Source of the DNA: Acidimicrobiales bacterium
GTDB lineage: Bacteria > Actinomycetota > Acidimicrobiia > Acidimicrobiales > MedAcidi-G1
Length of the DNA stretch: 64,000 nucleotides
Direction of reading: 5' to 3'
Assembly (NCBI GenBank): GCA_014237715.1
Contig: JAAZZG010000005.1
Coordinates: forward strand, 30,391 to 94,390
This document shows positions 39,563 through 58,024 of this stretch, piece after piece (within the stretch, counting starts at the first letter, position 1; each line of letters begins with the position of its first letter). The notes under the pieces were generated by a model, which worked only from the letters and a program-made list of their open reading frames with translations, was not told where the DNA came from and made no database searches. Made by a program: the position numbers and the translations under genes.

Positions 39563-41926
39563 CTATTCGAACTTGGTGCCGGCCTCGCGCAGGACGTCCA
39601 GCCAGCGGGCACCCGCATCGGGTGCCTCCTCTCCGGGACGGTAGGTCACGCCGTCGAGCGAGCCCGTCCAGGCGAAGGTTCCGAATCGTTCCCGGATGGC
39701 CCACGAGACCGGCGACTTCCGGTCGATGCCCACGTCGATGCCCTGGAAGGGGGCCATGGCGGTCAGCACCGGAAGGTCACGGGCACCACCCACTACCTCA
39801 CCGTCGACCCGCAACTCAACGTCGAGCTTCAGGTCGCCCAATGCCTCCACGGCCAGCACCACGGAGGCCGCTCCAGCAGTGAGCAATCCACCGTCTACTT
39901 CAGCCATCGAGCCGTAGCCGTTCCACGCCAACATCAGCTGGTCGTCAACCACGTAGAGGGCGTACCCGCCGCCCTGATCACCGTGGGCCACCAACGTGCC
40001 CCGGTCGCCCGTCGCAAAGTCCAACGACACCTCGACCTCGAAGGACCGGAAGTTGATGAGGGCGAGGGACCGGTACCGCTCCGTCGTCGGTCTGCCCGGC
40101 CTGAAGGTCGTCTCGACCACGGTGTCGGCGTCCCATGGGGGTCGCATCAGGTTCTTGACGTTGTTTCCCTCGTCGAGAGGAAACACCTGGTTGGCCCATG
40201 CCGCGTCCTCCCAGGCGGCCACTAGCTCGGCCAGCTTCTCGGGATGCTCGTCGGCCAGATCCCGTGACTCGGTGGGATCCTCGTCCAAGTGGTGGAGCTC
40301 CCACTGCTCGGTCGAGAACGGGGTTCGGACCTGACGGCACGTCACCGCGGACCAGCCGTCCCGGTAGAAGCCCCGGTGCCCCATCTGCTCGTAGTACTGC
40401 TCGGGGTGGGTGCTGTCGACCCCGGGATCATCCAGGGATCCCGCGAAACTGGAACCGGCGGCCGGCGGAACCCGTGCCCCGTGCTTCGTGGTGGGCATGG
40501 CCACCCCGACCAGGTCCAGCACGGTGGGCAGCAGATCGGTGACGTGCTGGTACTGGCGACGGATCCCACCGGCGCCAGCCAGGCCAGCGCCCTTCGAGAT
40601 GATGAACGGCACCTGGTGGCCACCCTGGTGGGTGTTGATCTTGTAGAGCCGGAACGGGGTTCCCGACACCATGGCCCAACCCGACGGGTAGTGGGCCAGG
40701 GCCTGCGGGCCACCTAGCAGGTCCATGCGGGAATGGTCCAGTTCCACCGAATCCAGGGGGTTGGGTCGGGTCTGGCCGAGGAGGGTCCGGAAGTAGGCGG
40801 ACGTGCCGTTGTCTAGACCCTCCCGGCTGCCGCCGTTGTCCGACGTGAACACCACCACGGTGTTGTCCCACTCCCCCATGGCTTCCAGTCCGTCACGGAG
40901 GCGCCCGAGGTTCTGATCGACGTTGTCGACCATGGCGGCGAACACCTCCTGGTACCGGGCGAAGACCTCCTTCTCGGTGACCGTCAGATCGTCCCATGCC
41001 CGGACCGCGTAGTTCTCCTCGGTGTTTCGGGGAGGCAGCACGACGTCGTCATCGAAGATGCCCATGGCTTTTTGTCGGTCGAAGCGGAGTCGTCGCACCT
41101 CGTCCCAGCCGGCCTCGTACCGGCCTCGGTACTTCTCTAGGTCGCCGGGTCGAGCCTGCAGCGGGGCGTGAACGGCGCCGTGGGAGAAGTAGAGGAACCA
41201 CGGCTTCGTGGGGTGCCCGTCGCGGACCTCGCCGACCATGTTCAGCGCCCGGTCGGTGAGATCGTCGGTGAAGTAGTAGTCGTCGGGGAAGTCGTCGACG
41301 TCCAGCGCGTGGTTGTCCTCGTAGAGGCGATGCGGCTGATGGAAGTTCGTGAACCCGTCGAGGATTCCGTAGAAGCGGTCGAACCCGGTCTGGAGCGGCC
41401 ACCCGTCCTTCGGGCCGGCCTCGGTGAGTTGGCTGTCTGGGCAGAGGTGCCACTTGCCGACCATGAGGCTCGACCAGCCTGCGTCGCGCAGCACCTCTCC
41501 CATGGTTACCGCATCGCTGCGGATAGACGCCGCGTACCCGGGGAAGCCGGGCTCCATGTGGCAGACCGTGCCCACTCCGGCCAGATGGTGGTTCAGCCCG
41601 GTCAGCAACGACGCCCGGGTCGGCGAGCACATCGGGTTGACGTGGAAGTTCACGTACCGAAGGCCCTCGTCGGCCAGACGGTCGACGTTCGGCGTGTCGA
41701 TCTCCGAACCGAAGCAGCCGACATCGCTAAAACCCAGGTCGTCGACCAGGACCACAAGCACGTTGGGGGCACCGTCGGGGGCGTTGGGCGGTTGGGTCCA
41801 CGCAGGGGTCGATGTGGACATGATGCGGCCCACCTCACCCCTAAATCCGTCGTAGGAAAATCCCTCGTAGGCCCTCGGACCCACCGGATGGTTGCTGGTC
41901 ATGTCCCTCCCGAAATCAGTCATCAC
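39563..41926 (-). CDS. Arylsulfatase, AtsA-like (Cys-type, large 787-aa form), no signal peptide
   Basis: LVVLVDDLGFSDVG metal site and the formylglycine motif CSPTRASLLTG. Has the long C-terminal extension seen in mycobacterial AtsA-size proteins. Confidence 0.85.
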   Translation of the reverse strand: MMTDFGRDMTSNHPVGPRAYEGFSYDGFRGEVGRIMSTSTPAWTQPPNAPDGAPNVLVVLVDDLGFSDVGCFGSEIDTPNVDRLADEGLRYVNFHVNPMCSPTRASLLTGLNHHLAGVGTVCHMEPGFPGYAASIRSDAVTMGEVLRDAGWSSLMVGKWHLCPDSQLTEAGPKDGWPLQTGFDRFYGILDGFTNFHQPHRLYEDNHALDVDDFPDDYYFTDDLTDRALNMVGEVRDGHPTKPWFLYFSHGAVHAPLQARPGDLEKYRGRYEAGWDEVRRLRFDRQKAMGIFDDDVVLPPRNTEENYAVRAWDDLTVTEKEVFARYQEVFAAMVDNVDQNLGRLRDGLEAMGEWDNTVVVFTSDNGGSREGLDNGTSAYFRTLLGQTRPNPLDSVELDHSRMDLLGGPQALAHYPSGWAMVSGTPFRLYKINTHQGGHQVPFIISKGAGLAGAGGIRRQYQHVTDLLPTVLDLVGVAMPTTKHGARVPPAAGSSFAGSLDDPGVDSTHPEQYYEQMGHRGFYRDGWSAVTCRQVRTPFSTEQWELHHLDEDPTESRDLADEHPEKLAELVAAWEDAAWANQVFPLDEGNNVKNLMRPPWDADTVVETTFRPGRPTTERYRSLALINFRSFEVEVSLDFATGDRGTLVAHGDQGGGYALYVVDDQLMLAWNGYGSMAEVDGGLLTAGAASVVLAVEALGDLKLDVELRVDGEVVGGARDLPVLTAMAPFQGIDVGIDRKSPVSWAIRERFGTFAWTGSLDGVTYRPGEEAPDAGARWLDVLREAGTKFE

Positions 41927-44229: not shown

Positions 44230-44955
44230 ATGGGCGAGACTCGGCCCATGGACCACAACACTCTCCTGACCGCTGTCGAACGCGAAGGGCGGGCCCTGCT
44301 AGCCGCCGCCGAACGGGACCCTTCCGCCCGAATCGAACACTGTCCGGACTGGGACGCCTCGGGCCTGGTCGACCACATAGCCGGGGTGTGGAGCTTCATG
44401 GCCGCCCAGATCGAGGCCGCCTCACCGGACAAGCCAACAGGACCCGACCCCGACGACCCCTCGACAGCCAGTGACCGGCTTAGCCGCCTGGTGGCCCTGC
44501 TGGCCTCGGTCGAGCCGGCGACGCCATGCTGGAACTGGTGTCCCAAGGAGGGCCGAACCGCAAGCTGGATGGTCCGACGCATGGCCCACGAGAACAACAT
44601 CCACCGCTGGGACGCCGAGAACGCCGTGGGTAACCCTGATCCGCTTGACGCCGACCTGGCCCACGACGGCGTGGACGAGATCCTCGACGTCTCGTGGCGA
44701 CACCTGCCTAGCGGCCCGGTGGGCGACTATCCCTCCTCGACCCTCCACCTACACCGCACCGATGGCGACGGCGAATGGCTGCTGTCGTCAGCCGGCGGCC
44801 AGTTGGTGGTGGGACACGAGCACGCCAAGGGCGATGCTGCGGCACGTGGCACGGCTTCGGACCTGAACCTGCTGGTATGGGGTCGTCGTCAGCCGACGCT
44901 GGAGGTCTTCGGCGACGAGGCCGTCCTCGACGCCTGGCTGGCCCTCGCTCCCTGA
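44230..44955 (+). CDS. Mycothiol-dependent maleylpyruvate isomerase-family (DinB-like, TIGR03083-type) protein
   Basis: 241 aa. The N-terminal region has CPDWDASGLVDHIAGV, typical of the MDMPI_N domain. Confidence 0.6.
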   Translation: MGETRPMDHNTLLTAVEREGRALLAAAERDPSARIEHCPDWDASGLVDHIAGVWSFMAAQIEAASPDKPTGPDPDDPSTASDRLSRLVALLASVEPATPCWNWCPKEGRTASWMVRRMAHENNIHRWDAENAVGNPDPLDADLAHDGVDEILDVSWRHLPSGPVGDYPSSTLHLHRTDGDGEWLLSSAGGQLVVGHEHAKGDAAARGTASDLNLLVWGRRQPTLEVFGDEAVLDAWLALAP

Positions 44956-44965
44956 CCCCGGGGAA

Positions 44966-46162
44966 TCAGTCCCTTTCGGTACCCCAGATGCCCACGAAGG
45001 ACACCATCTCGCCCGGGTAGCCCCCGAGGTTGTGCACCAGCGCCCGACTACGGGTGTCCAACGTGGTCACGCGGCGATCGGCGGGCGCCTCACCCCGCAA
45101 CTGGAGCCACGCCTCGTAATGCATGCGAAGCCCACTCGCCCCCACCGGATGGCCGAAGCTCTTGAGCCCGCCGTCGGTGTTGACCGGTAGGTCCCCGTCG
45201 AGGGCGAACCGGCCGTCCAGCACGTCGCTCCAGCCCTCGCCTCGTTCGCTGAACCCGAGATCCTCCATGAGCACTAGTTCGGTCGGGGTGAAGCAGTCAT
45301 GCACCTCAGCCATGGCCAGCTCGGTCCGCGGATCGGTGATCCCGGCCTGGGCGTAGGCGTCGTCGGCAGCCGCCACGCACTCAGGCAGCGTGGTGAAGTC
45401 GAACGCCGGATCCACGAGACCCGACCCGTCACCGGCCACCAGCGAGAGCGCCTTCACGTACAGCGGGGCATCGGTGTAGTCCGTCGCCCGTCCCGCGGGC
45501 ACCACGACGGCCGCTGCCGCACCGTCGGCCACACCGGCGCAGTCGAACACTGACAGGCGGCCGGCCACCGCGGCCATCTCGCAGATGGCCTCAGCCGACA
45601 TTTCCCGTCGGAACTGGGCCAGATCGTTACGGGCTCCGTTGAAGTGGTTCTTCTCGGCGATCTTGGCCACCACGTAGCGAAGCCTGTCCTCGTCGACGCC
45701 GTAACGCTCGGCGTAGGCGGGCAGCATCAGGCTGAACATGGCCGCGGCGGTGAGGGTTCGGTTGGTCCCGTCGGTGGGAATCGGGAAGGCGTTGAGGCCC
45801 TGATAGCCACCGTCCTTGACCTTCTCGCCGCCGATGGCGACGGCCACGTCGTAGGCGCCCGACGCCACGGCGTAACAAGCCTGGCGTAGGGCCTCGGACC
45901 CCGTGGCGCAGTAGTTCTCCACCCGGGTGACCGGACGGTTATCGAGGCGAAGCGGCGTGGCCAGCGAGATGCCCGAGGCCGACGACTGAGACGTGCCGTA
46001 CCAGTAGGCATCGACGTCGTCCTTGACCATGCCCGCCGAGTTCAGGGCGAGGCCGTGGGCCTCGATAAGCAGGTCGTCCAGCGAGCGGTCCCAGTGTTCG
46101 CGAAAAGGGGTGCACCCCATCCCGACGATGGCCACCCGATCCAAGATGCCGTGTGATGCCAT
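44966..46162 (-). CDS. Thiolase-like lipid-transfer protein (SCP-x type; Ltp-like)
   Basis: 398 aa. VAIVGMGCTPF, VENYCATGSEAL (nucleophile Cys region), C-terminal NTDGGLKSFGHPVGASG. Confidence 0.85.
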   Translation of the reverse strand: MASHGILDRVAIVGMGCTPFREHWDRSLDDLLIEAHGLALNSAGMVKDDVDAYWYGTSQSSASGISLATPLRLDNRPVTRVENYCATGSEALRQACYAVASGAYDVAVAIGGEKVKDGGYQGLNAFPIPTDGTNRTLTAAAMFSLMLPAYAERYGVDEDRLRYVVAKIAEKNHFNGARNDLAQFRREMSAEAICEMAAVAGRLSVFDCAGVADGAAAAVVVPAGRATDYTDAPLYVKALSLVAGDGSGLVDPAFDFTTLPECVAAADDAYAQAGITDPRTELAMAEVHDCFTPTELVLMEDLGFSERGEGWSDVLDGRFALDGDLPVNTDGGLKSFGHPVGASGLRMHYEAWLQLRGEAPADRRVTTLDTRSRALVHNLGGYPGEMVSFVGIWGTERD

Positions 46163-46186
46163 GTGCGCGCTCCTCTCCGCTGCGGG

Positions 46187-47593
46187 TCAGCCCCGAGCGG
46201 GATGGGCCTTCCAGAAATAGTTGTGTATTCCATCGGCCGTGAACATCCGACGGAACGTCATCTCCACCCGGTCGCCAATGGCCACCTCGGCCGGGTCGGC
46301 GTCGGTGAGTTCGATGGGCATGCGGCCGCCACCGTCGAAATCGACCACCGCGAACACCACCGGTGGGCTTTGCGAGTAGACGAGGTGGTCCACGGTGAAG
46401 GTGGCGATGGTGCCCGTGGCATCGGCCATGGGGGCCGGGTCCATGTCGTCGACCGACCCGCCGGCGATGCCGATACGACTGGGCGGCAGGTGGGTGATTC
46501 CGGTGGTCCGGTCGGTCGCCCCGACGAAGCCGTGCTTCCAGTCGGTCCGCCGAAGGGCGGCTGCCGAGGAGGGACGGTTGGGTTCGGGCCGGTTGGGGGG
46601 CTGGATCTCCAGCAAGCCGCGCCACGCCAGGTAGCGGGTGTAGGCCACGTCGGCACGGTCGTCGACCTGAGCGGCCACCGATCGGGTCGGCCGGCCGGCG
46701 GCCAGCGCATCGGTGGTCCGGAAGAACAGGACCTCGCACCCGTCTGCCAGCACCACGAGGGCCACCACGGCACCGGCTTCGGCCCCGTCCAGCACGTCGG
46801 CCAGGAGGAGGGAGGGATGGGCGGCACCAGCGTTGCCAATAGTGGCAGCCCGGTCGTCGGCCACGGCCACGCCGAGGCCGGACGCGGCCTTCTTGGAGGC
46901 CCGACCATGTAGCCCGGTGATCACAGCGACATCTACGTCGTCGGCGGTGAGATCAGTGGCGGCTAGGGCATCAGCCCAGGCCTGTCGTACGAGGGGCAGG
47001 TAGGCCTGCTCGCCGAAACGGTCCTCCCAGGTACGCGAATAGGCGCTCCCCGGAGTGCGCCAGCGGTCGGTAAATTCACCGGTGGACGTGGCCCCGCCGA
47101 GGTACTCGGCCAGAAGCGGACCGTCGTCCGATGATCCGGTGAGGATGGCGGTCGCTGCGTCGCCGCCCCCGCCGTCCTCGGGGCCAGTCGGCAGGCCGAT
47201 CCGGATGTCGGAGGCCACCACCAGAGTCCGGCCCGGAGCGGTCAAGGCGGCACGCAGGGCGCCCACCGCGGAGCGCTGGGCGCCCCCGAAGTCCAATGCG
47301 GGGATCGTGGAGTCGAGCCGGAGGGCGGCGTGTATCACCGTGGCATTGGTCTTGTCGAGATATGCCGGAGCGACCGTCGAAAACCAGAGAGCGTCCGGCG
47401 TTGTGTTGTCAAGCGCACCCAGCGCCCGGCGGGCCGCCGCCACACCCATGGTCGTGGTGTCCTCGTCAAAGGAGGCGACGGCACGATGGCCCCTACCGCC
47501 CCCTGCTCCCATGACCGATGAAATCTCGGCCCGGTCAAGACGCCGGTACGGCACGTGGGCGCCGTAGGCAAGGATTCCTCTGGTCATGCTCAT
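46187..47593 (-). CDS. HMG-CoA synthase/KAS-III-like domain fused to a C-terminal DUF35 OB-fold domain
   Basis: ORF 46187..47977 trimmed to MSMTRGILAYGAHVPYRRL (GGAGGGGAGACGG upstream). N-terminal HMGCS-like blocks (FDEDTTTMGVAAARRAL). The C-terminal GTIATFTVDH...VVDFDGGGRMPIELTD...IGDRVEMTF is DUF35 OB-fold-like. Only one Cys in 468 aa. Confidence 0.7.
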   Translation of the reverse strand: MSMTRGILAYGAHVPYRRLDRAEISSVMGAGGGRGHRAVASFDEDTTTMGVAAARRALGALDNTTPDALWFSTVAPAYLDKTNATVIHAALRLDSTIPALDFGGAQRSAVGALRAALTAPGRTLVVASDIRIGLPTGPEDGGGGDAATAILTGSSDDGPLLAEYLGGATSTGEFTDRWRTPGSAYSRTWEDRFGEQAYLPLVRQAWADALAATDLTADDVDVAVITGLHGRASKKAASGLGVAVADDRAATIGNAGAAHPSLLLADVLDGAEAGAVVALVVLADGCEVLFFRTTDALAAGRPTRSVAAQVDDRADVAYTRYLAWRGLLEIQPPNRPEPNRPSSAAALRRTDWKHGFVGATDRTTGITHLPPSRIGIAGGSVDDMDPAPMADATGTIATFTVDHLVYSQSPPVVFAVVDFDGGGRMPIELTDADPAEVAIGDRVEMTFRRMFTADGIHNYFWKAHPARG

Positions 47594-47618
47594 CCGTCTC
47601 CCCTCCGATACCGTACAG

Positions 47619-47637
47619 ATCTGACGGACCGTCAGAT
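47619..47637. promoter_or_regulatory. Perfect 19-bp palindrome (candidate operator) in a divergent promoter
   Basis: ATCTGACGG-A-CCGTCAGAT, with 9-bp perfect arms, centred in the 69-bp gap between the divergent starts 47593 (-) and 47663 (+). Confidence 0.5.
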
Positions 47638-47662
47638 TACCTTCCACGAGACCGGACGCCCC

Positions 47663-48856
47663 ATGGACTTCGATTTCACCACCGAACAGGAGGCCTTCCG
47701 GGCCGAGGTCGAGACCTTCCTCAACGCCAACGACGACCCCGACGTGTTTGACCCCACCAGGGAGAACATGGCCCAGATCGTCGACACGCCCAAACGCCGG
47801 GCCCTCATGAAGAAGATGGGCGAGCAGGGCTGGTTGGGCATCACCTGGCCGAAGGAGTACGGCGGCCAGGAGGGCGAGGGGGTCTACGAGTACATCCTTA
47901 ACGAGGCCCTTGCTGGACGGGGCGGCCCCCAGATCGGCAAGGGCGTCGGAATCATCGGCAAGACCCTCATCGCCCACGGATCAGAGTTTCTCAAGGAGGA
48001 ATTCCTCCCCAAGATCCTGGCCAACGAGGTGGAGTTCGCCGTCGGCTACAGCGAGCCCGAGGCCGGCTCGGACGCGGCGGCCATGAAGCTCAAGGCCGTC
48101 GAGACCACGGGAGGCTGGACCCTCAACGGTCAGAAGACCTGGACCACGTCGGCCCACTTCGCCGAGTGGTACTGGGTGGGCGCCCGCACCAACCCCGACG
48201 CCCCCAAGCACTCGGGAATCACCCTGTTCCTCGTGCCGATGGACCACCCAGGCATCACCGTCCAGGGCATCTGGACCATGGGCGACGAGCGCACCAACGA
48301 CGTCTTCTTCGACGACGTGTTCGTCCCCGACGAATACGTGGTCGGTCAGCTCGACCACGGCTTCCAGTACATCTCCCAGGCCCTCGACCTCGAGCGGTTC
48401 ACCATGTTCACCTTCTCGCCGATCAAGCAGCGCTTGGACCTTTTGATCGACCACGTGCGCTCGGCCCGCCGCGACGGCCAGCCACTCAAGGACGACCCGA
48501 AGGTGCGTTCGCGCATCGCCCGTCTAGCCACCACTGCTGAGGTGGCCCGGGGCATGGGCCTGCGGGTCGTCGACGCCTCGGTGAAGGCAGAGGCCAGCGG
48601 TGGTGCACCGCCGACCATCGAGTCCTCGGAGTACAAGCTGTTCACCACCGAGTTCTCCAAGATGCTCGCCGATGCGTCAATGGACCTAGGCGGTCCGGGC
48701 ACCCAGCTTCGGGTCGGCACCGAGGAAGCCCCCATGGCTGGGCGAGCCGAGTCGACCTACCGGTACACCGTGCTGGACACCATTGGCGGCGGCACCTCGG
48801 AGGTGCAGAAGAACATCATCACCCGCCGCGGCCTGGGCCTCCCCAAGAACTTCTAG
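47663..48856 (+). CDS. Acyl-CoA dehydrogenase family protein
   Basis: ORF 47555..48856 trimmed to MDFDFTTEQEAFRAEV. GYSEPEAGSDAAAM. C-terminal TIGGGTSEVQKNII. Confidence 0.85.
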   Translation: MDFDFTTEQEAFRAEVETFLNANDDPDVFDPTRENMAQIVDTPKRRALMKKMGEQGWLGITWPKEYGGQEGEGVYEYILNEALAGRGGPQIGKGVGIIGKTLIAHGSEFLKEEFLPKILANEVEFAVGYSEPEAGSDAAAMKLKAVETTGGWTLNGQKTWTTSAHFAEWYWVGARTNPDAPKHSGITLFLVPMDHPGITVQGIWTMGDERTNDVFFDDVFVPDEYVVGQLDHGFQYISQALDLERFTMFTFSPIKQRLDLLIDHVRSARRDGQPLKDDPKVRSRIARLATTAEVARGMGLRVVDASVKAEASGGAPPTIESSEYKLFTTEFSKMLADASMDLGGPGTQLRVGTEEAPMAGRAESTYRYTVLDTIGGGTSEVQKNIITRRGLGLPKNF

Positions 48857-48874
48857 CCCCACCGACATTCGACC

Positions 48875-50044
48875 ATGACGACCGACCGCCCCCTTCTCGA
48901 CGGGATCACCGTGCTGAACCTCGCCTCGGTGGGGCCCGCGGTGCGCGCCGCTCGCTGGCTGGCCGACTGGGGTGCCGACATCATCAAGGTGGGGCCGGTT
49001 CCGCGTGACGCCGACGTGGAGATCACCCCACCGGCCTACGCCTACAGCGCACACCGGGGCATGCGTCGGGCCCTGCTGGACCTCAAGTCCGACGGAGGAC
49101 GCGACGCCTTCCTGCAACTGGTCGCTCACGCCGATGTGGTCATCGAGAGTTTCCGCCCCGGCGTCGTCGACCGTCTGGGCATCGGCTACGAGGCCCTCCG
49201 CGCCGTGAATCCCCGCATCGTGCTGTGCTCGACCACTGGCTTCGGCCAGACCGGCCCACGGGCCCAGTGGGCGGGCCACGACCTCAACTACCTGGCCGTG
49301 GGTGGTTACCTCCACTGCTCGGGCCGCGGTAGCGATGGCAGCCCGGCACTTCCCGGTGCGACGGTGGCCGACAGCGCTGGCGGTGGCCTGCACGCGGTGG
49401 CCGCCATCTGTGCCGCACTGACCGCCCGGGGGACCACCGGCGAGGGCACCCACCTCGACGTGTCGATCGCCGACGGCGTCCTGTCGCTCATGTCGCTGGC
49501 CGTCGACGAATACCTGGCCGACGGCACCGAGCCCGAGCCCCGCCACGGCCTGCTTACCGGCCGCTACGCCTGGTATGACCTCTACGAAGCCTCCGACGGC
49601 GGCTGGCTGGCCGTGGGCGCCATCGAGCCCCGTTTCTTCGCCAACCTGTGTCACGGCCTGGGCTGTGACCAGTGGGCCGGGCAGCAGTACGACGACGACG
49701 CGGTCGATGCCATGCGGGCCGACTTCACGGGGGCTTTCGCCTCGCGCCCCCGCGACGAGTGGGTTGACCTCCTGGGACCGGCCGACGCGTGCGTCACGGC
49801 GGTGCTGGACGTGCCCGAACTCCTGGCCGACGAGCAGTTCCGGGCCCGGGGCGCGTTCACCGAGGTCACCCACCCAACGGCCGGAACCATTGCCCAGGTG
49901 GCCGCCCCGCTGGCCGGGCAGGTCGATGCCGCCGGTCTACCCGTCCGCGACATGGCCCGGCCGGACACCGACGAGATCCTGGCCGCCGTCGGCGTGGGTG
50001 CCGACCGACTGGCCTCTCTGCGAGCCGAGGGAGTGATCGCATGA
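48875..50044 (+). CDS. Family III CoA-transferase (CaiB/BaiF/alpha-methylacyl-CoA racemase-like)
   Basis: 389 aa. LDGITVLNLASVGPAVRAARWLADWGADIIKV N-terminal signature. Confidence 0.85.
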   Translation: MTTDRPLLDGITVLNLASVGPAVRAARWLADWGADIIKVGPVPRDADVEITPPAYAYSAHRGMRRALLDLKSDGGRDAFLQLVAHADVVIESFRPGVVDRLGIGYEALRAVNPRIVLCSTTGFGQTGPRAQWAGHDLNYLAVGGYLHCSGRGSDGSPALPGATVADSAGGGLHAVAAICAALTARGTTGEGTHLDVSIADGVLSLMSLAVDEYLADGTEPEPRHGLLTGRYAWYDLYEASDGGWLAVGAIEPRFFANLCHGLGCDQWAGQQYDDDAVDAMRADFTGAFASRPRDEWVDLLGPADACVTAVLDVPELLADEQFRARGAFTEVTHPTAGTIAQVAAPLAGQVDAAGLPVRDMARPDTDEILAAVGVGADRLASLRAEGVIA

Positions 50045-50583
50045 GCACTGAACTGGCTCCGATCACTGAAGCGGTCACCGACCGGATCGGGCTCGTCCAG
50101 TATGAGGAGGAGGGCGGCTTCCCGGTCGAGCACGGCTACATCTGGACCACGTGCGCTGCCGTCGAGAACGGCAACCCGCTGTTCTGGGACGAGACGGTGG
50201 CCGACGACCTCACCGACGGGCCGATCGCCCCGCCGACCATGCTGTCGGTCTGGTTCCGCCCCCACCACTGGTCGCCGGGCCGCACCGAACCGGCGGTCCC
50301 CCTACAGGCACACTTCGACCTGAAGGACGACCTCCACCTGCCCGAGGCCATCATCTCGTCGAACACCAACACGTTCCACGACCCGGTCCGCATCGGCGAC
50401 CGGGTCCGGTCCCGCCAGATCCTCCGGTCGGTCAGCGAACCCAAAACGACCCGACTGGGCCACGGTCGCTTCTGGACCATCGACGTGGAGTACCTGAACC
50501 AGGACGACGCCCTGCTGGGCGTGGAGTCCTACACGGCCTTCGGCTACCGCCGCGCCGACGCCAAGAAAAGAGCCGACTCGTGA
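50041..50583 (+). CDS. Hotdog-fold protein (FAS1-like/MaoC N-terminal-type dehydratase subunit)
   Basis: ORF 49789..50583 trimmed to MSTELAPITEAV (ATGA overlap with the CoA-transferase stop). 180 aa. PPTMLSVW and GDRV...EPKTTRLG...FWTIDVEY hotdog-like pattern. Confidence 0.65.
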   Translation: MSTELAPITEAVTDRIGLVQYEEEGGFPVEHGYIWTTCAAVENGNPLFWDETVADDLTDGPIAPPTMLSVWFRPHHWSPGRTEPAVPLQAHFDLKDDLHLPEAIISSNTNTFHDPVRIGDRVRSRQILRSVSEPKTTRLGHGRFWTIDVEYLNQDDALLGVESYTAFGYRRADAKKRADS

Positions 50584-51053
50584 CCCGACTGGTCCACGGT
50601 GACGTGGCGATCGGCGACACTCTGCCTGGTCTGAGCGTCGACGTGACGGCCACCACGGTCGTGCTCGGCGCACTGGCCTCACGGGACTGGCGACCCATGC
50701 ACCACGACCGAGACTTCGCCATCAATCGCAACGGCACACAGGACATCTTCCTCAACACCCCGAACCAAGCCGCCTGGTTCGAGCGTTACGTGACCGACTG
50801 GACCGGGCCCGCCGGCCGGCTGGGCCGGATGACCTTCCGTATGAACACCTCCGTGTTTCCCGGCGATCACATGGTCTTCACGGCCACAGTTACTGGCACC
50901 GAGGTCGACGATGCCGGATGCGGCTGGATCGACCTGGACGTGGCCCTCATGGTGGGCGAGGTGGCCGCCACTACGTGCGCCACCCGGGTGGCCCTCCCCC
51001 TCGACGAGAACGACAACCCCTGGGCGCGCCGTGGCGATGCCTGGCGACCCTAG
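50580..51053 (+). CDS. MaoC-family (R)-hydratase-like hotdog protein
   Basis: ORF 50151..51053 trimmed to GTG 50580 (GTGA overlap). 157 aa. RDWRPMHHDRDFA resembles the hydratase motif region. Confidence 0.7.
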   Translation: MTRLVHGDVAIGDTLPGLSVDVTATTVVLGALASRDWRPMHHDRDFAINRNGTQDIFLNTPNQAAWFERYVTDWTGPAGRLGRMTFRMNTSVFPGDHMVFTATVTGTEVDDAGCGWIDLDVALMVGEVAATTCATRVALPLDENDNPWARRGDAWRP

Positions 51054-51064
51054 GAGACCCGACC

Positions 51065-52198
51065 GTGGACCTGGCCTTCACCGACGAACAGGAGATGTTG
51101 CGAGAGGCCGTGCGCGGCCTGTGCGCCGATGCCGCTGACTCGGTCCGTGCCATGGAGAACGATCCGAAGGGCTTCGACGACGACTTCTGGCAGGGCCTAG
51201 CGGCCATGGGCCTGACCGGGCTCATGACCCCCGAAGCCCTCGGCGGCTCCGGCATGGGCCTGTTGGACGCTGTGGTGGTCTACGAGGAGCTGGGCCGCAG
51301 CCTCGTGCCCTCACCCCATCTGGTGTCGGCGGTGGTGGCCGCCGGCGTGCTGGCTACCGCCGGATCCGACGCCCAGCAGACCGAGTGGTTGCCCGCCATG
51401 GCCGCCGGCGACGCCGTTCTGTCGGTGGCGTGGTTGGAGCCCGACAACAGCTCGGGCCCCAGCGGTGTCCAACTCACCGCGCAGGCCAACCCAACCGGAG
51501 GCGACGACCGGGGATTCGTCCTGACCGGCATCAAGCGCCATGTGCCCTTCGCCTCGTCGGCCGACCGACTGGTGGTCCTGGCCCGAACCGGAGACGGAAG
51601 CGAGGTGATCGACCTGTTCCTGGTGGATCCCACGGCTGAGGGCGTCACCCTGACCCTCCAGCCGACGGTGGCCGGCGACAGCCAGTACCGGGTCGACCTA
51701 GACGGCGTCCGGGTGACGGCTGACGACCGGATAGGTGCAGCCGGTACTGGCTGGGCTACCTGGTCGACGGTCATGACCGACGCCATGGTCCTGGTGGCGG
51801 CCCAGGCGGTGGGCGCGGCCGAGGCCACCCACGCCCTGACCACGGAATACGCCAAGGAGCGACACCAGTTCGACAAGCCCATCGGCTCGTTTCAGGCCAT
51901 CAGCCACTATCTGGCCGACGGCATCACGGCCATCGACGGTGCCCGGGTGCTGGTCCACCGGGCCGCCTGGACCCGCGACGAGGGGCGGGACGTGGCCTCG
52001 CTGGCCCCCATGGCCAAGCTGTTCGCCACCCAGACCTGCCGGGACGTGACCGGTGTGGCCATCCAGGTGCACGGCGGTATGGGATTCACCGTGGAGTGCG
52101 ATGCCCAGCTGTACTTCCGCCGGGCAAAGTCGTGGCAGCTGAACTGGTTCGACACCGACCACCTCGAGGACCTGATCGCTGCCGCCGTCCTCGACTGA
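51065..52198 (+). CDS. Acyl-CoA dehydrogenase family protein (second ACAD)
   Basis: ORF 50918..52198 trimmed to GTG 51065 (VDLAFTDEQEMLREAV; AGGAG 8 nt upstream). QVHGGMGFTVE block. Confidence 0.8.
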   Translation: MDLAFTDEQEMLREAVRGLCADAADSVRAMENDPKGFDDDFWQGLAAMGLTGLMTPEALGGSGMGLLDAVVVYEELGRSLVPSPHLVSAVVAAGVLATAGSDAQQTEWLPAMAAGDAVLSVAWLEPDNSSGPSGVQLTAQANPTGGDDRGFVLTGIKRHVPFASSADRLVVLARTGDGSEVIDLFLVDPTAEGVTLTLQPTVAGDSQYRVDLDGVRVTADDRIGAAGTGWATWSTVMTDAMVLVAAQAVGAAEATHALTTEYAKERHQFDKPIGSFQAISHYLADGITAIDGARVLVHRAAWTRDEGRDVASLAPMAKLFATQTCRDVTGVAIQVHGGMGFTVECDAQLYFRRAKSWQLNWFDTDHLEDLIAAAVLD

Positions 52199-52225
52199 CC
52201 CGTCCCCGACTGGAAGCAACCGGAC

Positions 52226-54031
52226 GTGTGTGCCCTAACGTCCGGACCCCGTCGGGCGATCGGTCCGCGGAGGGCACCGGGGGGCACCGTGGGAACGTCA
52301 TGGATCATCGAGGGATCGGTCGATGACCGTTGGCCGATCAACACCCGGGGCAACGTCGGCGAGGTCTTCCCTGAGGTCCTTACCCCACTCTCGTACCGGC
52401 TGGGAGTGATCGCTGCGGAGAAGGCGTGGCGTGATGCCTATGCCGAACTCGGGGTGGCCGTGAAGGGTGACTTCGCTGGCGACGACCCGGTGATCATCGG
52501 CCTGTACGGCGGCTACGCCTACCTCAACCTCTCCTACCTCCGAATCCTCGGCGTCCGGGCTCCCGGTTCGTCGCCGGAGGCCATCGACGTGGCCTTCTTC
52601 GGTGAAGGCGATCCCCCACCTTACGAACCGAGGAAGGGCGACCGGAGTCTCCGCTCTACGCTCCGGATCCTGAAGTCGGTGATGGGCGCTCTGGGCACGA
52701 AGGCCATGCCGTCAATGGTGGCCGAGAGCTACGCCCTGGCCGACGCCCACCGGGAGGCCTGCCCGCCGCTCGACGCCTCCGACGAGGATCTGCTGGCCTA
52801 CCTCCACGCCTTTCCCGCGGCCTTCGGTCCGGCCTTCAAGAACCACATGCTCTCGTCAGCCCTCGCATCAATCGTGGCCGGCTTTCTAGCTGATGCCTGT
52901 GCAGCGGCCGGCGAACCGGGACTGGTCACCCACCTGCTTGGGTCGGCAGGTGACGTGAAGTCGGCCGAGTACGCCCGCGACCTGTACGCCATTGCCCGGA
53001 CGGTGCAGAACCAGCCCACGGTGGCCGCCGCCTTTGACGCCGGCGTGGCCGGGCTCCTTCAACGACTGGACAGTTCCCGGACCGGCGATTCCGACGTGGC
53101 TGACTTCCTCGGACGATTCGCCGACTTCGTGGCCGACCACGGACACCGCGGTCCCAACGACTGGGAACTCTCGTCGCGCAACTGGGAGAACACGCCGGAG
53201 ATGGCCCTCGTGGCCATCGACCGTATGCGTCTGGCCGACCACGACCTGGACCCGGCGGCCCGCCTGGCCGATGACGGGGAGCGCCGCGACGCGGCCATCG
53301 CCGTGGTCCGTCCCCACGTCAAGGGGCTGGACCGGAAGAATTTCGACAAGGCGTTGGCTGCCACCGCCTGGTGGGCCCAGGCCCGCGAAGCCACCCGGGA
53401 CCGGGCCATCCACATCGGCGCCCCCACCAAGCAGGTGTACCGCGAACTCGTCCGTCGGGCCGCCAAGCGTGGAGGCGACTCGAATCCGGTGCGAGTCGCC
53501 CTGCTGGATCCGATCGACGAGCTCCCCTCCTACCTGGCCGATCCGGGAGCGTTCACCGACCTGCTGGCCGAGCGGGGCGCCCTGTTCGACCGGTATGCGG
53601 CGGTCGAACCACGCTTCTTCATCACCAGCCAGGACGAGGTACCCACCATCGAGGAGCTCGAAGCCGATCAGGCCGCCCGAGCCGCCGACACCATCGCCGC
53701 TCCCGGTGACGTGCTCACCGGTGCATCGGGGTGCCAGGGCGTGGCCCGGGGCCGGGCCCGCATCGTGATGGATCCGGCCGACGCCCTCGACCTCGAGCCG
53801 GGCGAGGTTCTGGTGGCCCCCATTACCGACCCGGCGTGGACTCCGCTGTTCCTGCCGTCGGCCGCCGTGGTAGTCGACGTGGGGGCGCTCATGAGCCACG
53901 CAGTAATCGTGTCGCGTGAACTGGGCATCCCGTGCGTGGTGTCCGTCGAAGGCGCCACCCGACGGATCCCTGACGGGGCGCTGGTCGAAGTGGATGGCAC
54001 TGCCGGAACGGTCACCGTGCTCGACGACTAA
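52226..54031 (+). CDS. PEP-utilising-enzyme mobile (swivelling His) domain protein without an N-terminal ATP-grasp domain
   Basis: 601 aa maximum; an internal GTG at 52286 is possible. The C-terminus GVARGRARIV...GEVLVAPITDPAWTPLF...GALMSHAVIVSRELGIPCVV is the PEP-utilisers mobile domain. I cannot see the GGKG-type ATP-grasp N-domain of PpsA/rifampin phosphotransferases. Confidence 0.7.
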   Translation: MCALTSGPRRAIGPRRAPGGTVGTSWIIEGSVDDRWPINTRGNVGEVFPEVLTPLSYRLGVIAAEKAWRDAYAELGVAVKGDFAGDDPVIIGLYGGYAYLNLSYLRILGVRAPGSSPEAIDVAFFGEGDPPPYEPRKGDRSLRSTLRILKSVMGALGTKAMPSMVAESYALADAHREACPPLDASDEDLLAYLHAFPAAFGPAFKNHMLSSALASIVAGFLADACAAAGEPGLVTHLLGSAGDVKSAEYARDLYAIARTVQNQPTVAAAFDAGVAGLLQRLDSSRTGDSDVADFLGRFADFVADHGHRGPNDWELSSRNWENTPEMALVAIDRMRLADHDLDPAARLADDGERRDAAIAVVRPHVKGLDRKNFDKALAATAWWAQAREATRDRAIHIGAPTKQVYRELVRRAAKRGGDSNPVRVALLDPIDELPSYLADPGAFTDLLAERGALFDRYAAVEPRFFITSQDEVPTIEELEADQAARAADTIAAPGDVLTGASGCQGVARGRARIVMDPADALDLEPGEVLVAPITDPAWTPLFLPSAAVVVDVGALMSHAVIVSRELGIPCVVSVEGATRRIPDGALVEVDGTAGTVTVLDD

Positions 54032-54742: not shown

Positions 54743-55561
54743 TCAGATGGTGAAGGCCAGACGGGTGGCCATTTGGATTCCCAGATCGACGTCGCCACCC
54801 ACCGTCACCCGACCGTCGTCCAGTAGCGGCTGCGGATCGATCCGACCACCGGTGAGCGACAACCAGTCGTGCGACGACATGGCCAGGGTCACCGTCGGTT
54901 CGCCTTCCAGTTCGTCGACCACCGCCGCCCGTCCATCGACGACCACCCGAATGGTGGCCTCGACCGGTCCGGTGAGGGTCACCTCGACCCGGCTCCCGTC
55001 GGGCGCTCCGGCCTTCTTGCCGATGACGAACCCGGCCGCAGTACTCACCTCGGCCACCGACATCTCGGCCGGCCGACCGGCAGTCCCCTGCGGGTGACCC
55101 AACGGCGCACGACAGTCCTCGAGGTGGAGCCACGAGTCGTAGACCCGGACGTGCATGAATCGTAGGTACGGCACCTCGCCCACCGGCGACCAGCCGACCT
55201 TCAGGATCTCCTCGTCGGGCATGGCGTTCAGCTGGTCGAGCCGTTCGGTCGAGATGGTCCGGAAGGCGTCCAGCACCTCGGCACCCGACATCGACCGCAT
55301 CGATTCCACCCACTGTTCGTTGCCCGCCGCGATGGTGTTCTTGAGATGCTCGGTCGGGAACTCGACCTCGGGAGCCTGCTCGCCCCGGAGCATCCGCTCG
55401 GTTCCGATGATATGGGCCAGGTTGTCCTGGACGGTCCAGCCAGGACACCGACTGGGCGTGGCCCAGTCGTCGATCGACAAGCCGTCCGCCCAGTCGATCC
55501 ACTCGTTCCAGATTTCGGCGAGTCCGCCGAGAATGTGGTCGCGGTCCAGCGTGATGTCCAT
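54743..55561 (-). CDS. Mycothiol-dependent maleylpyruvate isomerase-family (DinB-like) protein with a C-terminal SCP2-like region
   Basis: 272 aa. SRCPGWTVQDNLAHIIGTE is the MDMPI_N pattern. Confidence 0.6.
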   Translation of the reverse strand: MDITLDRDHILGGLAEIWNEWIDWADGLSIDDWATPSRCPGWTVQDNLAHIIGTERMLRGEQAPEVEFPTEHLKNTIAAGNEQWVESMRSMSGAEVLDAFRTISTERLDQLNAMPDEEILKVGWSPVGEVPYLRFMHVRVYDSWLHLEDCRAPLGHPQGTAGRPAEMSVAEVSTAAGFVIGKKAGAPDGSRVEVTLTGPVEATIRVVVDGRAAVVDELEGEPTVTLAMSSHDWLSLTGGRIDPQPLLDDGRVTVGGDVDLGIQMATRLAFTI

Positions 55562-55622
55562 GGAATCTCCGTTCGGGGGGTCGTTCGTCGAGCGTTCGGG
55601 TCTGGTCAGGACGTGAGGTTGA

Positions 55623-56315
55623 TCAGGGGGTCGGGTTGGCCACGGACTGCCACTCCCGAGCGTCGAGGTAGGGCTTGAACACCTCGCCGACCGCGTGCAG
55701 GTCGGCCGGGGTCTTGGGGCGCTGCAACTCGTAGAGGTGAGGGAACTCGAGCCATCCCAGCACTAGGTCCCAGAGTCGCTCGGCAGCCTCGCCGGTCGGT
55801 GGTTCGATGAGGACCGGGCCAAACAGCTTGCGGGAGTCGTCGGCATCGGCACCTGGGAACACCAACGTCGGCACCCCCCAACCACCCATGCCCAGCACAC
55901 GATCATGATCAGCTCGGACGTCGTCGTGGGTGGTCTCATCAGCCAACGCGGCATCCACGTAGCCGGGATCGAGGTCCATCTCGACGAGCAGCTCGCGGGC
56001 TACTTCGGGACGGTGGGGCTTGCGGCCCTCGACGTGCAGGGCAGTGCCCGATCGGAGGTACCAGGCGTCGTTCAGCGCCGGGTCCTCACGCTTGAGCAGG
56101 GCGCCGATCCGCATCATCGACCAGCCGTAGGACCACTCCCGTTCCCACGGATGCTTCTTCCCCTCGGCCCGGTTGACCTCCTCGAGGCTGAAGAACCGCC
56201 AGTCCACGTCGAGTTCGAGCCGGTCGCGGACCTCGCGCATCCACAGCGAGGTCTGGTAGGCCCACGGACAGATCACGTCGAAGTGGAAGTCGACCCGCAT
56301 CGGTTGTTCATCCAT
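55623..56315 (-). CDS. DsbA-like thioredoxin-fold protein (HCCA-isomerase/DsbA family)
   Basis: 230 aa. VDFHFDVICPWAY N-terminal single-Cys CPWA motif. No signal peptide. Confidence 0.65.
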   Translation of the reverse strand: MDEQPMRVDFHFDVICPWAYQTSLWMREVRDRLELDVDWRFFSLEEVNRAEGKKHPWEREWSYGWSMMRIGALLKREDPALNDAWYLRSGTALHVEGRKPHRPEVARELLVEMDLDPGYVDAALADETTHDDVRADHDRVLGMGGWGVPTLVFPGADADDSRKLFGPVLIEPPTGEAAERLWDLVLGWLEFPHLYELQRPKTPADLHAVGEVFKPYLDAREWQSVANPTP

Positions 56316-56348
56316 GACCAGAGCCTCGCGCAGACTCGTAGCGAGGGG

Positions 56349-57908
56349 TCAGTCGGGGACGCGAAGCTCATGACGGGTCACCTTGCCCAGGGCGTTGCGG
56401 GGTATGGCATCGATGGCCACCACCCGCCGGGGCAGCTTGTACGCCGCCAGGTGGTCCTGGGCGAAGGCCCGCAACTCATCGACTCCGGGGCAGTCGTGTC
56501 CGTCGGCCACCACGATCCACGCCACCACCTCCTCGCCCCACTCGGGCGAGGGAACGCCAGCCACCGCCACCTCGGCCACCGCCTGGTGAAGAATCAGGGC
56601 GTCATCGACCTCCCGGGGATAGACGTTGAAGCCACCGCTGATGATGAGCTCCTTGGCCCGTCCGACAATGGCCAGGTATCCGTCGTCGACCGCGCCCAGG
56701 TCGCCGGTCCGGAACCACGGGTCGCCACCGTCCGGATCGACCACGAACGCCTCGGCCGTGGCCTCAGGTCGCTCCCAGTAGCCGGCGAACACGTTGGGTC
56801 CCCGGACGAGGATCTCGCCGACCGGCCCGTCGGACCCGTCGGCCAGCCGAACGTCCACTCCGGGCAGCGGGATGCCCACCGCTCCCGGACGTCGATCATC
56901 GTCAAACGGGTTGGAGACCAGCATCACCGTCTCGGTCATGCCGTAACGCTCCAGGACCGAAACGCCGGCCCGTTCGGCCAAACGAACGTGGAGTTCGGCA
57001 GCCAGCGGCGCAGAACCGGCCACGCAGAGGCGAAGGCCTCCGAGGAGGTCGACCCGATTGTGGTCGGCCAGGCGGTGGTACATGGTCGGCACGCCGAAGA
57101 ACATCGTGGCGTCATGGACGTCGAGGGCGTCCAGCACGTCGTCGGGGGCGAACCCCGACTGCAAAACCGCTGAGGCCCCGGCCAGCAGGGTCCCGTGGAG
57201 GCCCACACCGAGTCCGTGCATATGGAACAACGGCAAACACAGGACGAGCCGGTCGACTTCGGTCCAACGCCAGGCCACGCGAACCGACTGGGCGCCGGCC
57301 AACAGGTTGGCCTGGGTCAGGACCGCGCCCTTGGGGCGCCCCGTGGTTCCCGACGTATACCCGATGATCGCCGGATCACCGGGTAGCGAGACATCCAGAA
57401 GTGCTGCCGTCCCGTCATCGACGGGCACGTCCGGGAACGGATCGACTAACTGCGCTACCAGCAGGTCGGGATCCAGCCCGGCCAGCAGTTCGGCCCAACC
57501 GTCATGGCCGACCAGCGCTGCCCGGGGAGTGCAGTCGGCGATCACGTGGGCCAGTTCAGCCTCGCGGTAGGACCCATTGGTCGGCACCACGACCAGGCCG
57601 AGCCGCAGACAAGCCACGTGGGCCACGGCCAGGTCGACGGTCGACGGTCCCGAGAGCAGCAGCCGCTCGCCGCCCACCAGACCCGCCCCGGCCAGACGGG
57701 CCGCCAGGCGTTCGGTGCGATCCAGGAACTCGCCTCTGGCCACCCACCGGGCCGGACCGCCGCCGATCGAACCCCACAACAGCGGACGGTCCGGTTCCGC
57801 ACCGAGGGCCGCGGTCCACGCCCCGGCCAGCGTGCCGGGGTGAGGGAGGTCGAATCCGTCCGGAGCCCCGACCGGCAGGTGTGCACTCCAGTGCCGGAGA
57901 TCATTCAT
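56349..57908 (-). CDS. AMP-dependent acyl-CoA synthetase/ligase
   Basis: 519 aa. YTSGTTGRPKG AMP-binding motif, with later GDLG and GKV blocks. Confidence 0.85.
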   Translation of the reverse strand: MNDLRHWSAHLPVGAPDGFDLPHPGTLAGAWTAALGAEPDRPLLWGSIGGGPARWVARGEFLDRTERLAARLAGAGLVGGERLLLSGPSTVDLAVAHVACLRLGLVVVPTNGSYREAELAHVIADCTPRAALVGHDGWAELLAGLDPDLLVAQLVDPFPDVPVDDGTAALLDVSLPGDPAIIGYTSGTTGRPKGAVLTQANLLAGAQSVRVAWRWTEVDRLVLCLPLFHMHGLGVGLHGTLLAGASAVLQSGFAPDDVLDALDVHDATMFFGVPTMYHRLADHNRVDLLGGLRLCVAGSAPLAAELHVRLAERAGVSVLERYGMTETVMLVSNPFDDDRRPGAVGIPLPGVDVRLADGSDGPVGEILVRGPNVFAGYWERPEATAEAFVVDPDGGDPWFRTGDLGAVDDGYLAIVGRAKELIISGGFNVYPREVDDALILHQAVAEVAVAGVPSPEWGEEVVAWIVVADGHDCPGVDELRAFAQDHLAAYKLPRRVVAIDAIPRNALGKVTRHELRVPD

Positions 57909-57977
57909 CGTCCGGACCGTACCGTCGACGCCGGGGCTGGCCGGATTCGGGAGGGCGACTTGACCAGAGATACCGGT

Positions 57978-58007: not shown

Positions 58008-58024
58008 CCACGGAGAGCAACTTC

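Follow-up and report, generated by a model that had tools for sequence, protein, structure and literature searches.

Bacterial genomes harbor many loci in which genes for a hydroxymethylglutaryl-CoA (HMG-CoA) synthase-like protein (HMGS; HMGCS for the archaeal enzyme), an acetoacetyl-CoA thiolase (ACAT) and a DUF35 protein are co-localised; 1,030 such loci have been mined, 1,001 of them without secondary-metabolite neighbours (Liao et al., Nat Commun 2026, PMC12960953). In the same study, the complex of Pseudomonas fluorescens (PfACAT/HMGS-DUF35) was purified and found to combine a fused HMGS-DUF35 protein lacking the Glu-Cys-His-Asn (E-C-H-N) tetrad with an ACAT that keeps its Cys, HDxF and GHx motifs. 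This complex carries out thiolysis of acetoacetyl-CoA and forms neither HMG-CoA nor acetoacetyl-CoA (PMC12960953). Besides that report, we found no other characterised HMGS-DUF35 fusion in the literature. Here we describe a gene pair of the same kind, an HMGS-like/DUF35 fusion and an adjoining thiolase, in a 64,000-nucleotide stretch of an Acidimicrobiales genome (assembly GCA_014237715.1, contig JAAZZG010000005.1, positions 30,391 to 94,390; hereafter the window, numbered from its first letter). The pair is a divergent member of the known ACAT/HMGS-DUF35 class and not a new architecture. An earlier interpretation made from the letters without database searches (the sequence-only reading) had considered the architecture uncharacterised, a view overturned by the purification and assay of the P. 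fluorescens complex (PMC12960953).

Work on the characterised relatives also indicates how the subunits depend on each other. The H294Y exchange in the HDxF motif of PfACAT leaves almost no activity, ACAT-type and MucB subunits are insoluble or inactive when alone, and an interfacial CoA chamber persists in complexes without HMGS activity (PMC12960953). A fourfold substitution, 'mut4', was used to inactivate the archaeal HMGCS, and the archaeal quadruple mutant made no HMG-CoA and no acetoacetyl-CoA (PMC12960953). Liao et al. regard the ACAT/HMGS-DUF35 class as an intermediate that has not yet been recruited to a pathway (PMC12960953). We consider it likely that the window pair is a thiolase complex of this bacterial type, in which the fusion is a non-catalytic partner and the thiolase acts thiolytically, probably in the beta-oxidation of 2-methyl-branched acyl-CoAs.

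The fusion gene (46187-47593, minus strand) encodes 468 amino acids starting MSMTRGILAYG, and its ATG is preceded by a Shine-Dalgarno-like GGAGGGGAG. It is the first gene of a two-gene operon and ends in TGA, after which a 24-nt spacer (46163-46186, minus strand) with a Shine-Dalgarno-like GGAGAGGAG leads to the gene for an SCP2/archaeal-type thiolase of 398 amino acids (44966-46162, minus strand), called as an open reading frame (ORF) and assigned from NCBIfam NF004810 and its motifs. Both genes lie in the same reading frame. The 24-nt spacing given by the sequence-only reading is right, and its order of thiolase then fusion holds for plus-strand coordinates only, since the fusion is transcribed first. 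At third codon positions, the GC content (GC3) reaches 0.86 in the thiolase ORF; in the stop-to-stop ORF at 46187-47980, within which the fusion lies, it is 0.77. Both values are typical for real genes in the window, where overall GC is 68%.

Residues ~1-330 of the fusion (46604-47593, minus strand) were assigned to an HMGS/KAS-III-like thiolase-fold domain from PRK04262, phmmer, MAFFT and Foldseek results. The NCBIfam model PRK04262 (archaeal HMG-CoA synthase) spans residues 4-329 with 122 bits, under its cutoff of 244. Phmmer searches of the PDB matched this part to archaeal HMGCS (6esq_I, 7e-14), to PhlA (5m3k_A and 9skh_A, 2e-13) and to the HMGS-like subunit of 9VBO (2e-6). An AlphaFold2 (AF2) model of the fusion, built with 74 homologues, has a pLDDT of 87.9 and a pTM of 0.90, and is weakest at residues ~340-390 (pLDDT 51-74), which include the zinc-ribbon remnant described below. 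The best PDB matches of the model in Foldseek were PhlA, the top match (TM 0.82), archaeal HMGCS (0.84) and MucA (0.80-0.82), with TM values normalised to the target and top matches at E-values of 6e-23 to 2e-20; free-standing HMG-CoA synthases and FabH ranked behind them. Together with a match of the Pfam model PF01796 to residues 391-448, these results agree with the HMGCS/KAS-III-like plus DUF35 fusion of 468 residues that the sequence-only reading had proposed.

The catalytic positions were located in a MAFFT alignment of 215 sequences, comprising 6esq_I, PhlA, the window fusion and 212 full-length family members. Printed alignments served to rebuild the segments of 6esq_I and PhlA, and the resulting numbering reproduces the catalytic tetrad E82, C114, H238 and N270 of the Methanothermococcus thermolithotrophicus HMGCS (PMC12960953). 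The E82 column holds V74 in the fusion (FSTVAPAY) and T, A, V or S across the family, never E; the C114 column holds Q106 (ALDFGGAQRSAVGAL) and elsewhere V, L, A, Q or T, never C; and the H238 column holds T226 and otherwise T, A, S or Y, never H. Thus Glu, Cys and His of the tetrad are missing in all 212 full-length fusions, which range from 30 to 99% identity. The N270 column is N254 in the fusion, with Asn kept in 137 of the 212 relatives. PhlA itself has C, G and D at three tetrad columns, which are three of the four 'mut4' substitutions. The replaced Glu in FSTVAPAY and the missing acyl-enzyme nucleophile had both been recognised from the letters alone, as had the presence of a single cysteine in the whole fusion, C286 in LADGCEVL. 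The family alignment therefore bears out the predicted loss of Cys, Glu, His and zinc ligands, with the refinement that the tetrad Asn is retained.

Two ways of rescuing HMGS chemistry were considered and rejected. A genuine HMG-CoA synthase is not compatible with the loss of Glu, Cys and His. A shifted nucleophile is not plausible because the only cysteine, C286, is at a non-conserved position where family members have A, C or V, while the C114-equivalent column is never Cys. A related alternative is that the pair performs a biosynthetic Claisen condensation, either in reverse beta-oxidation or fatty-acid synthesis of the archaeal ketothiolase-DUF35 type, or as residual acetoacetyl-CoA or HMG-CoA synthesis that would feed a mevalonate route. 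Thiolase reactions are reversible, archaeal thiolase/DUF35 pairs are biosynthetic and some sources annotate the fusion as HMG-CoA synthase. However, beyond the lost tetrad residues, neither the archaeal quadruple mutant nor the Pseudomonas complex forms either product (PMC12960953), the acyl-CoA dehydrogenases next to the pair act oxidatively, and no reductase or mevalonate genes were found in the scanned window flanks. We regard condensation as very unlikely.

A different possibility is that the HMGS-like domain has gained a new ligand-binding, specificity, regulatory or catalytic role through other residues. The domain is strongly conserved: sequences 58-99% identical to the fusion have a mean column identity of 64-71% and at least 70 invariant columns, and the architecture persists over several phyla. 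Within the clade of the window fusion, T73, D101, R107, S108, G227, H229, R231, G253 and N254, all beside the former catalytic positions, are invariant or nearly so, and the retention of the tetrad Asn in the wider family points the same way. Yet most of the residues conserved family-wide (P15, R18, D43-E44-D45, D101, R107 or K, D129, R179 and G253 among 94 clusters at 50% identity) are also present in both the active HMGCS and the inactive PhlA, indicating that structural or interface requirements, and not a new active site, keep them fixed. The former Glu, Cys and His positions vary (V/A/T, V/L/A/Q and T/A/S/Y, respectively), and the Pseudomonas complex gave thiolase chemistry only (PMC12960953). 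A newly acquired role thus appears unlikely to us, and we favor a structural role for the pseudo-HMGS because the conserved residues are shared with HMGCS and PhlA while the catalytic positions drift.

The C-terminal part of the fusion is a DUF35 whose two elements have fared differently. Its OB-fold (aa 384-465; 46199-46444, minus strand), recognised by PF01796 and by the beta-strands of the model, carries a conserved C-terminal motif, Y459-x-W461-K462. PF01796 matches residues 391-448 at 1.3e-14 (54 bits, above the cutoff of 27) and is the only Pfam match of the fusion, and residues 353-465 match the archaeal DUF35 subunit 6esq_E at 0.018. A canonical DUF35 zinc ribbon has the form C-x2-C-x10-C-x2-C (PMC12329534). 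The corresponding remnant in the fusion (aa 356-380; 46454-46528, minus strand) reads D361-x2-T364-x10-G375-x2-G378, so that the canonical spacing is kept and all four cysteines are lost, in line with the absence of CxxC pairs noted from the letters; the zinc-ribbon model PF12172 has no match in the window fusion in the Pfam scan. The ligand columns are Cys in ~78 of the 212 relatives. Of the sampled relatives with ~48% identity or less to the window fusion, nearly all keep the four cysteines, and proteobacterial fusions still match PF12172. In the Acidimicrobiia-type clade (~53% identity or more), by contrast, replacement of the cysteines (D/G, T/S, G/S and G/P) is general. This pattern indicates that the zinc-less DUF35 is a derived trait of that clade.

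The thiolase shows no such erosion. It scores 539 bits on NCBIfam NF004810, over the cutoff of 403, and its residues 81-92 (VENYCATGSEAL) hold the predicted nucleophile Cys85. Cys85, H288-D-C290-F291 (HDCF) and G337-H338 (GHP) are invariant in 75 of 75 orthologues from related genomes. Its closest PDB relatives are 7yvy_A (1e-52) and the thiolase of the archaeal complex, 6esq_A (3e-49), and remoter matches include SCP2-type thiolases (1e-31), BbsB (7e-28), PhlC (8e-21) and Ltp2 (6ok1; 4e-21). Given the retained residues and the nearest relatives, its sequence is that of a catalytically complete thiolase. The Ltp-like label that the sequence-only reading had given it is not supported, as it lies nearer to the archaeal acetoacetyl-CoA thiolase than to Ltp2.

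These comparisons bear on two further alternatives. One is that the pair is a Friedel-Crafts C-acyltransferase of the PhlACB/MucABC type acting on a small-molecule acceptor. The HMGS-like subunit without a tetrad recalls PhlA and MucA, and PhlA is the top Foldseek match. However, HDxF has been lost altogether in PhlC and MucB (PMC12960953) and HDCF is kept here, the thiolase is far nearer to archaeal ACAT than to PhlC, and Pfam scans of the window (~23.6-62 kb) found no polyketide synthase (PKS) or nonribosomal peptide synthetase (NRPS) genes. We judge an acyltransferase function to be scarcely credible.

The other alternative is a retro-aldolase like ChsH1-ChsH2(DUF35)-Ltp2 or Shy-Sal, in which the thiolase-fold protein would cleave a 3-hydroxyacyl-CoA directly and no dehydrogenase would be needed. 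DUF35 accompanies the thiolase-fold protein here as it does for Ltp2 and Sal, and the conserved gene module next to the pair includes ChsE-like and ChsH-like genes. Neither the window region scanned (~23.6-62 kb) nor the conserved neighbours in 80 genomes yielded a 3-hydroxyacyl-CoA dehydrogenase, and the lack of a linked dehydrogenase keeps the aldolase idea alive at low probability. The steroid aldolases, however, carry YDHF (Ltp2) or YDCY (Sal) instead of HDCF (PMC12329534), whereas HDCF and Cys85 are kept in every one of the 75 orthologues. The thiolase is also nearer to real thiolases than to Ltp2, and genes for short-chain dehydrogenases/reductases (SDRs) occur in related fusion and thiolase clusters of Variovorax, Rhodococcus and Azoarcus. 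The sequence-only reading had left the choice between retro-aldol and thiolytic side-chain cleavage open. Side-chain-type cleavage as such fits the ChsE-, ChsH- and racemase-like context, and the retro-aldol option, opposed by HDCF and Cys85, is in our estimate quite improbable.

The fusion and the thiolase travel together. We compared 80 genomes, most of them from Acidimicrobiia, the best match being a 'Ca. Microthrix' metagenome-assembled genome at 88%. Of the 76 loci that had sufficient flanking sequence, 71 have the thiolase directly downstream of the fusion in the same orientation, with a gap of -7 to ~150 nt, and across loci the identity to the window fusion is correlated with the identity to the window thiolase (r=0.74). 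The family extends well beyond this sample. Among the candidates scored, more than 5,400 proteins are fusion homologues at E<=1e-5, and at E<=1e-30 there are 580 clusters (50% identity), many of them full-length down to ~30% identity. Carriers include Acidimicrobiia, Yinghuangia, Amycolatopsis, Nocardioides, Rhodococcus, Mycobacterium avium, Bacillaceae, Desulfobacterium N47, Variovorax, Azoarcus and sphingomonads.

By homology to the solved and assayed complexes, we propose the following mechanism. The fusion and the thiolase would assemble as a hetero-oligomer, by analogy dimers of each bridged by the OB-fold, with the DUF35 OB-fold clamping the fusion to the thiolase, a part that a free-standing DUF35 plays in the archaeal complex and in PhlACB and MucABC. 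The pseudo-HMGS/DUF35 protein would maintain the solubility and conformation of the thiolase and would complete an interfacial CoA/acyl chamber. The thiolase would be the sole catalytic subunit, with Cys85 as acyl-enzyme nucleophile, and Cys290 of HDCF as acid/base and with the further use of His338, and would cleave 3-oxoacyl-CoAs in a CoA-dependent manner via an acyl-Cys85 intermediate. The thiolytic direction seems most likely, as the last step of a beta-oxidation-like route. A pseudo-enzyme scaffold for the thiolase, as first suggested from the letters, is thus supported by homology, by the fold match to three solved complexes, by the conserved operon and by the P. fluorescens precedent.

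The genes that face the operon suggest which substrates such a complex may serve. A block of five genes on the plus strand runs divergently from the fusion-thiolase pair and adjoins it in ~30 of the 80 genomes at 52-90% identity. It begins with an acyl-CoA dehydrogenase of the large subunit type, ChsE4/FadE26-like (47663-48856), identified by Pfam acyl-CoA dehydrogenase N, M and C domains and by PDB matches to 4x28_A (1e-55) and Tcur3483 (3e-52), and syntenic in 31 of 80 loci. It is followed by a gene for a protein of the family-III CoA-transferase fold resembling alpha-methylacyl-CoA racemase (48875-50044; PF02515), whose nearest solved relative is the Mycobacterium tuberculosis enzyme, MCR (1x74, 5e-61). 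Equivalents of MCR His126 and Asp156, which we take to be its catalytic pair, are kept as GHD and VGD/VAD. The CaiB/BaiF CoA-transferase label that Pfam and NCBIfam attach to this gene was considered and set aside on account of the MCR relationship and the two kept residues; from its sequence, the gene more probably encodes a racemase or epimerase than a transferase.

Two hot-dog genes come next. The first (50041-50583; PF13452) encodes a 180-aa protein like the N-terminal domain of ChsH2, without a DUF35 extension, whose sole PDB matches are 4w78_A and 4wnb_A (3e-5). The second (50580-51053; PF01575) encodes a 157-aa, ChsH1-like MaoC-type hydratase subunit, whose sole PDB matches are 4wnb_B and 4w78_B (2e-15). 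The two hot-dog genes share 4 nt, as in translational coupling, and an overlap of the same length joins the first of them to the racemase-like gene. These overlaps suggest that the two hot-dog proteins form a heteromeric ChsH1/ChsH2-like hydratase under tight coupling, in which the ChsH2-like subunit has no DUF35 tail of the M. tuberculosis kind. The block ends with an acyl-CoA dehydrogenase of the small subunit type (51065-52198), ChsE5/FadE27-like and IpdE2-like (4x28_D, 2e-38).

Acyl-CoAs that are 2-methyl-branched or bulky are the substrates of SCP2-type thiolases, of MCR, of ChsE-type heteromeric dehydrogenases and of ChsH-type hydratases. With ChsE-, MCR- and ChsH-like neighbours, the pair is most economically read as the thiolytic step of a route for branched or bulky acyl-CoAs, and this context makes a branched-chain substrate class probable. 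On other replicons, too, the pair lies within clusters of beta-oxidation-like content. The fusion and thiolase cluster of Variovorax includes an SDR, a MaoC hydratase, an acyl-CoA dehydrogenase, a CoA-transferase and a transporter binding protein, and those of Rhodococcus DK17 (pDK3), R. qingshengii and Azoarcus KH32C have hydratases and CoA-activating enzymes together with an acyl-CoA dehydrogenase and/or an SDR. We also entertain, as a tentative and rather doubtful proposal taken as a whole, that the pair is no evolutionary leftover but the dedicated thiolase of a widespread, as yet uncharacterised 2-methyl-branched acyl-CoA beta-oxidation module of the Acidimicrobiia, made up of the ChsE-like dehydrogenase, the MCR-like racemase and the ChsH-like hydratase. 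Its substrates would be isoprenoid-like or sterol-side-chain-like, the dead HMGS would form part of the acyl/CoA chamber and set specificity, and a zinc-free DUF35 would stand in for a zinc ribbon that is universal elsewhere.

A perfect 19-bp palindrome, ATCTGACGG-A-CCGTCAGAT (47619-47637, no strand), sits within the 69-nt divergent promoter region between the fusion and the acyl-CoA dehydrogenase gene as a candidate operator. Its CTGACG(G)..(C)CGTCAG core recurs ~40 nt upstream of the fusion in six other loci (L001, L002, L003, L032, L034 and L052), and it is probably the operator through which a regulator acts on both operons.

Other genes around the pair show various degrees of conservation. 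A second paralogue of the family-III CoA-transferase fold, ~429 aa long and 25-34% identical to the window copy, is missing from the window. It is the third commonest neighbour of the pair (27 of 80), divergent and directly upstream of the fusion, at loci that include L005, L008, L011-L013, L023, L026, L033, L053, L057 and L077, and two paralogues of this fold lie downstream of the thiolase instead at L024, L046, L047, L066, L068 and L070. Directly after the second dehydrogenase, 52199-54031 (plus strand) encodes a 610-aa protein in which Pfam recognises a PEP-utilising mobile domain at the C-terminus and nothing in the N-terminal ~530 residues; a ~627-aa ORF family, matched by position only, takes the place of this gene in 9 related loci.

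Two paralogues of mycothiol maleylpyruvate isomerase (MDMPI/DinB-type), one with an SCP2 sterol-transfer-like C-terminus, flank the region at 44230-44955 (plus strand) and 54743-55762 (minus strand), and an Rv2466c-like mycothiol-dependent reductase is encoded at 55623-56348 (minus strand), a set of genes that fits an actinobacterium using mycothiol. The three closest genomes (L001-L003) share synteny for the MDMPI and PAC2 genes that lie downstream of the thiolase. Scattered over the window are further genes of lipid or xenobiotic type, for a cytochrome P450 (33444-34676, plus strand), a 787-aa ORF that is sulfatase-like by eye only (39563-41926, minus strand), an acyl-CoA/AMP-forming ligase (56349-57986, minus strand) and a luciferase-like monooxygenase (58004-59236, plus strand) beside a weak, sub-threshold match to a TetR-type regulator. 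None of the P450, sulfatase-like, ligase and monooxygenase genes is conserved beside the pair in other genomes.

Several points weigh against reading the pair as a thiolytic complex equivalent to that of P. fluorescens, or limit the comparison. The equivalence rests on the architecture and on proteobacterial homologues at 30-37% identity, the full-length Pseudomonadota fusions aligning over 98-100% of the window fusion. Two look-ups of 20 distant cluster representatives found no Pseudomonas among the fusion relatives; the representatives came from Amycolatopsis, Nocardioides, Desulfobacterium N47, Aeribacillus, Bacillus and Falsibacillus. A homologue search seeded with the Variovorax protein likewise found Achromobacter, Phreatobacter and Alphaproteobacteria only, and no Pseudomonas. 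The Acidimicrobiia module has no 3-hydroxyacyl-CoA dehydrogenase, so a full thiolytic cycle would need an unlinked enzyme. Within the window clade, N254 and the polar residues R107, S108, H229 and R231 by the former active site remain nearly or fully invariant, so the pocket may retain some binding or specificity role; this and the aldolase idea are the main rivals of our reading. Finally, the loss of the zinc ribbon, in the region of lowest model confidence, might weaken or alter the contact between DUF35 and the thiolase.

The residue losses and the gene context have consequences for how this family is read. Thousands of bacterial members are labelled 'HMG-CoA synthase', 'KAS III C-terminal domain protein' or 'OB-fold protein', and the homologues we retrieved are named 'hydroxymethylglutaryl-CoA synthase (family protein)', '3-oxoacyl-ACP synthase III C-terminal domain-containing protein', 'zinc ribbon domain-containing protein' or 'OB-fold domain-containing protein'. 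Since Glu, Cys and His are lost family-wide and HMG-CoA cannot be made, an 'HMG-CoA synthase' label on these proteins is no evidence for a mevalonate pathway, and the 'hydroxymethylglutaryl-CoA synthase' name could yield false calls of one. The additions made here are the clade-wide zinc-free DUF35, the family-wide loss of Glu, Cys and His, which shows the 'HMG-CoA synthase' annotation to be wrong, the conserved linkage to ChsE-, MCR- and ChsH-like genes and the operon in 71 of 76 loci. The conserved catabolic linkage points to a role in branched or bulky acyl-CoA thiolysis and away from an unrecruited relic or intermediate, and together with the Rhodococcus, Variovorax and Azoarcus clusters it gives the class a testable physiological role. 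The clade-wide loss of zinc ligands is in effect a natural experiment on whether the DUF35 ribbon needs zinc to clamp the thiolase.

In the igr system of M. tuberculosis, the thiolase-fold enzyme is bound by a DUF35 that forms the C-terminal part of ChsH2. As in ChsH1-ChsH2-Ltp2, Shy-Sal and BbsAB, a DUF35 here partners an SCP2-type thiolase-fold enzyme, ChsE- and ChsH-like genes lie nearby, and BbsB uses HDxF for thiolysis. However, the DUF35 of those systems, a zinc binder in every case (C4 or C3H1), is either part of a hydratase chain (ChsH2, Shy) or a free-standing protein (BbsA), whereas in the window the 180-aa ChsH2-like protein has no DUF35 and the pseudo-HMGS carries it. Ltp2 and Sal are aldolases with YDHF and YDCY; the window pair has neither the Tyr motif nor a hydratase-supplied DUF35. 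Measured against canonical DUF35 proteins, the fusion lacks the C4 or C3H1 ribbon and retains the C-terminal OB fold.

PhlACB (5M3K, 5MG5, 9SKH) and MucABC (9VBO, 9VBT) have, as we propose for the pair, a non-catalytic HMGS-like subunit, providing the best structural matches to the fusion, a sole active site on the thiolase-fold subunit and a DUF35 as clamp. They differ in having three separate chains, in the loss of HDxF, which is invariant as HDCF in the window thiolase, and in carrying out Friedel-Crafts acylation within biosynthetic gene clusters. The archaeal thiolase/HMGCS/DUF35 complex has the same three modules, with a thiolase match of 3e-49 and HDCF, an HMGS fold at TM 0.84 and the OB-fold, and the window thiolase has all the residues expected of SCP2-type and archaeal thiolases: the N-domain Cys, the HDCF loop Cys and the GHP His. 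The archaeal HMGCS, in contrast, is active (E82, C114, H238, N270) and receives channelled acetoacetyl-CoA for HMG-CoA in a biosynthetic mevalonate role, and the archaeal DUF35, which has a C4 zinc ribbon, forms a chain of its own; the Glu, Cys and His of a competent HMGCS are absent from the window fusion.

The closest likeness is to PfACAT/HMGS-DUF35. Both have a fused HMGS-DUF35 that has lost Glu, Cys and His, an adjoining ACAT-type thiolase with Cys, HDxF and GHx and no PKS/NRPS context, and thiolysis without condensation, shown for the Pseudomonas complex, is predicted for the window pair. The differences are that the window pair comes from another phylum and its fusion keeps the tetrad Asn, that its clade lacks the zinc cysteines whereas proteobacterial members have the PF12172 ribbon, and that it lies inside a conserved ChsE/MCR/ChsH-like catabolic module. 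At the level of sequence, the pair shows every feature of the ACAT/HMGS-DUF35 class that we tested.

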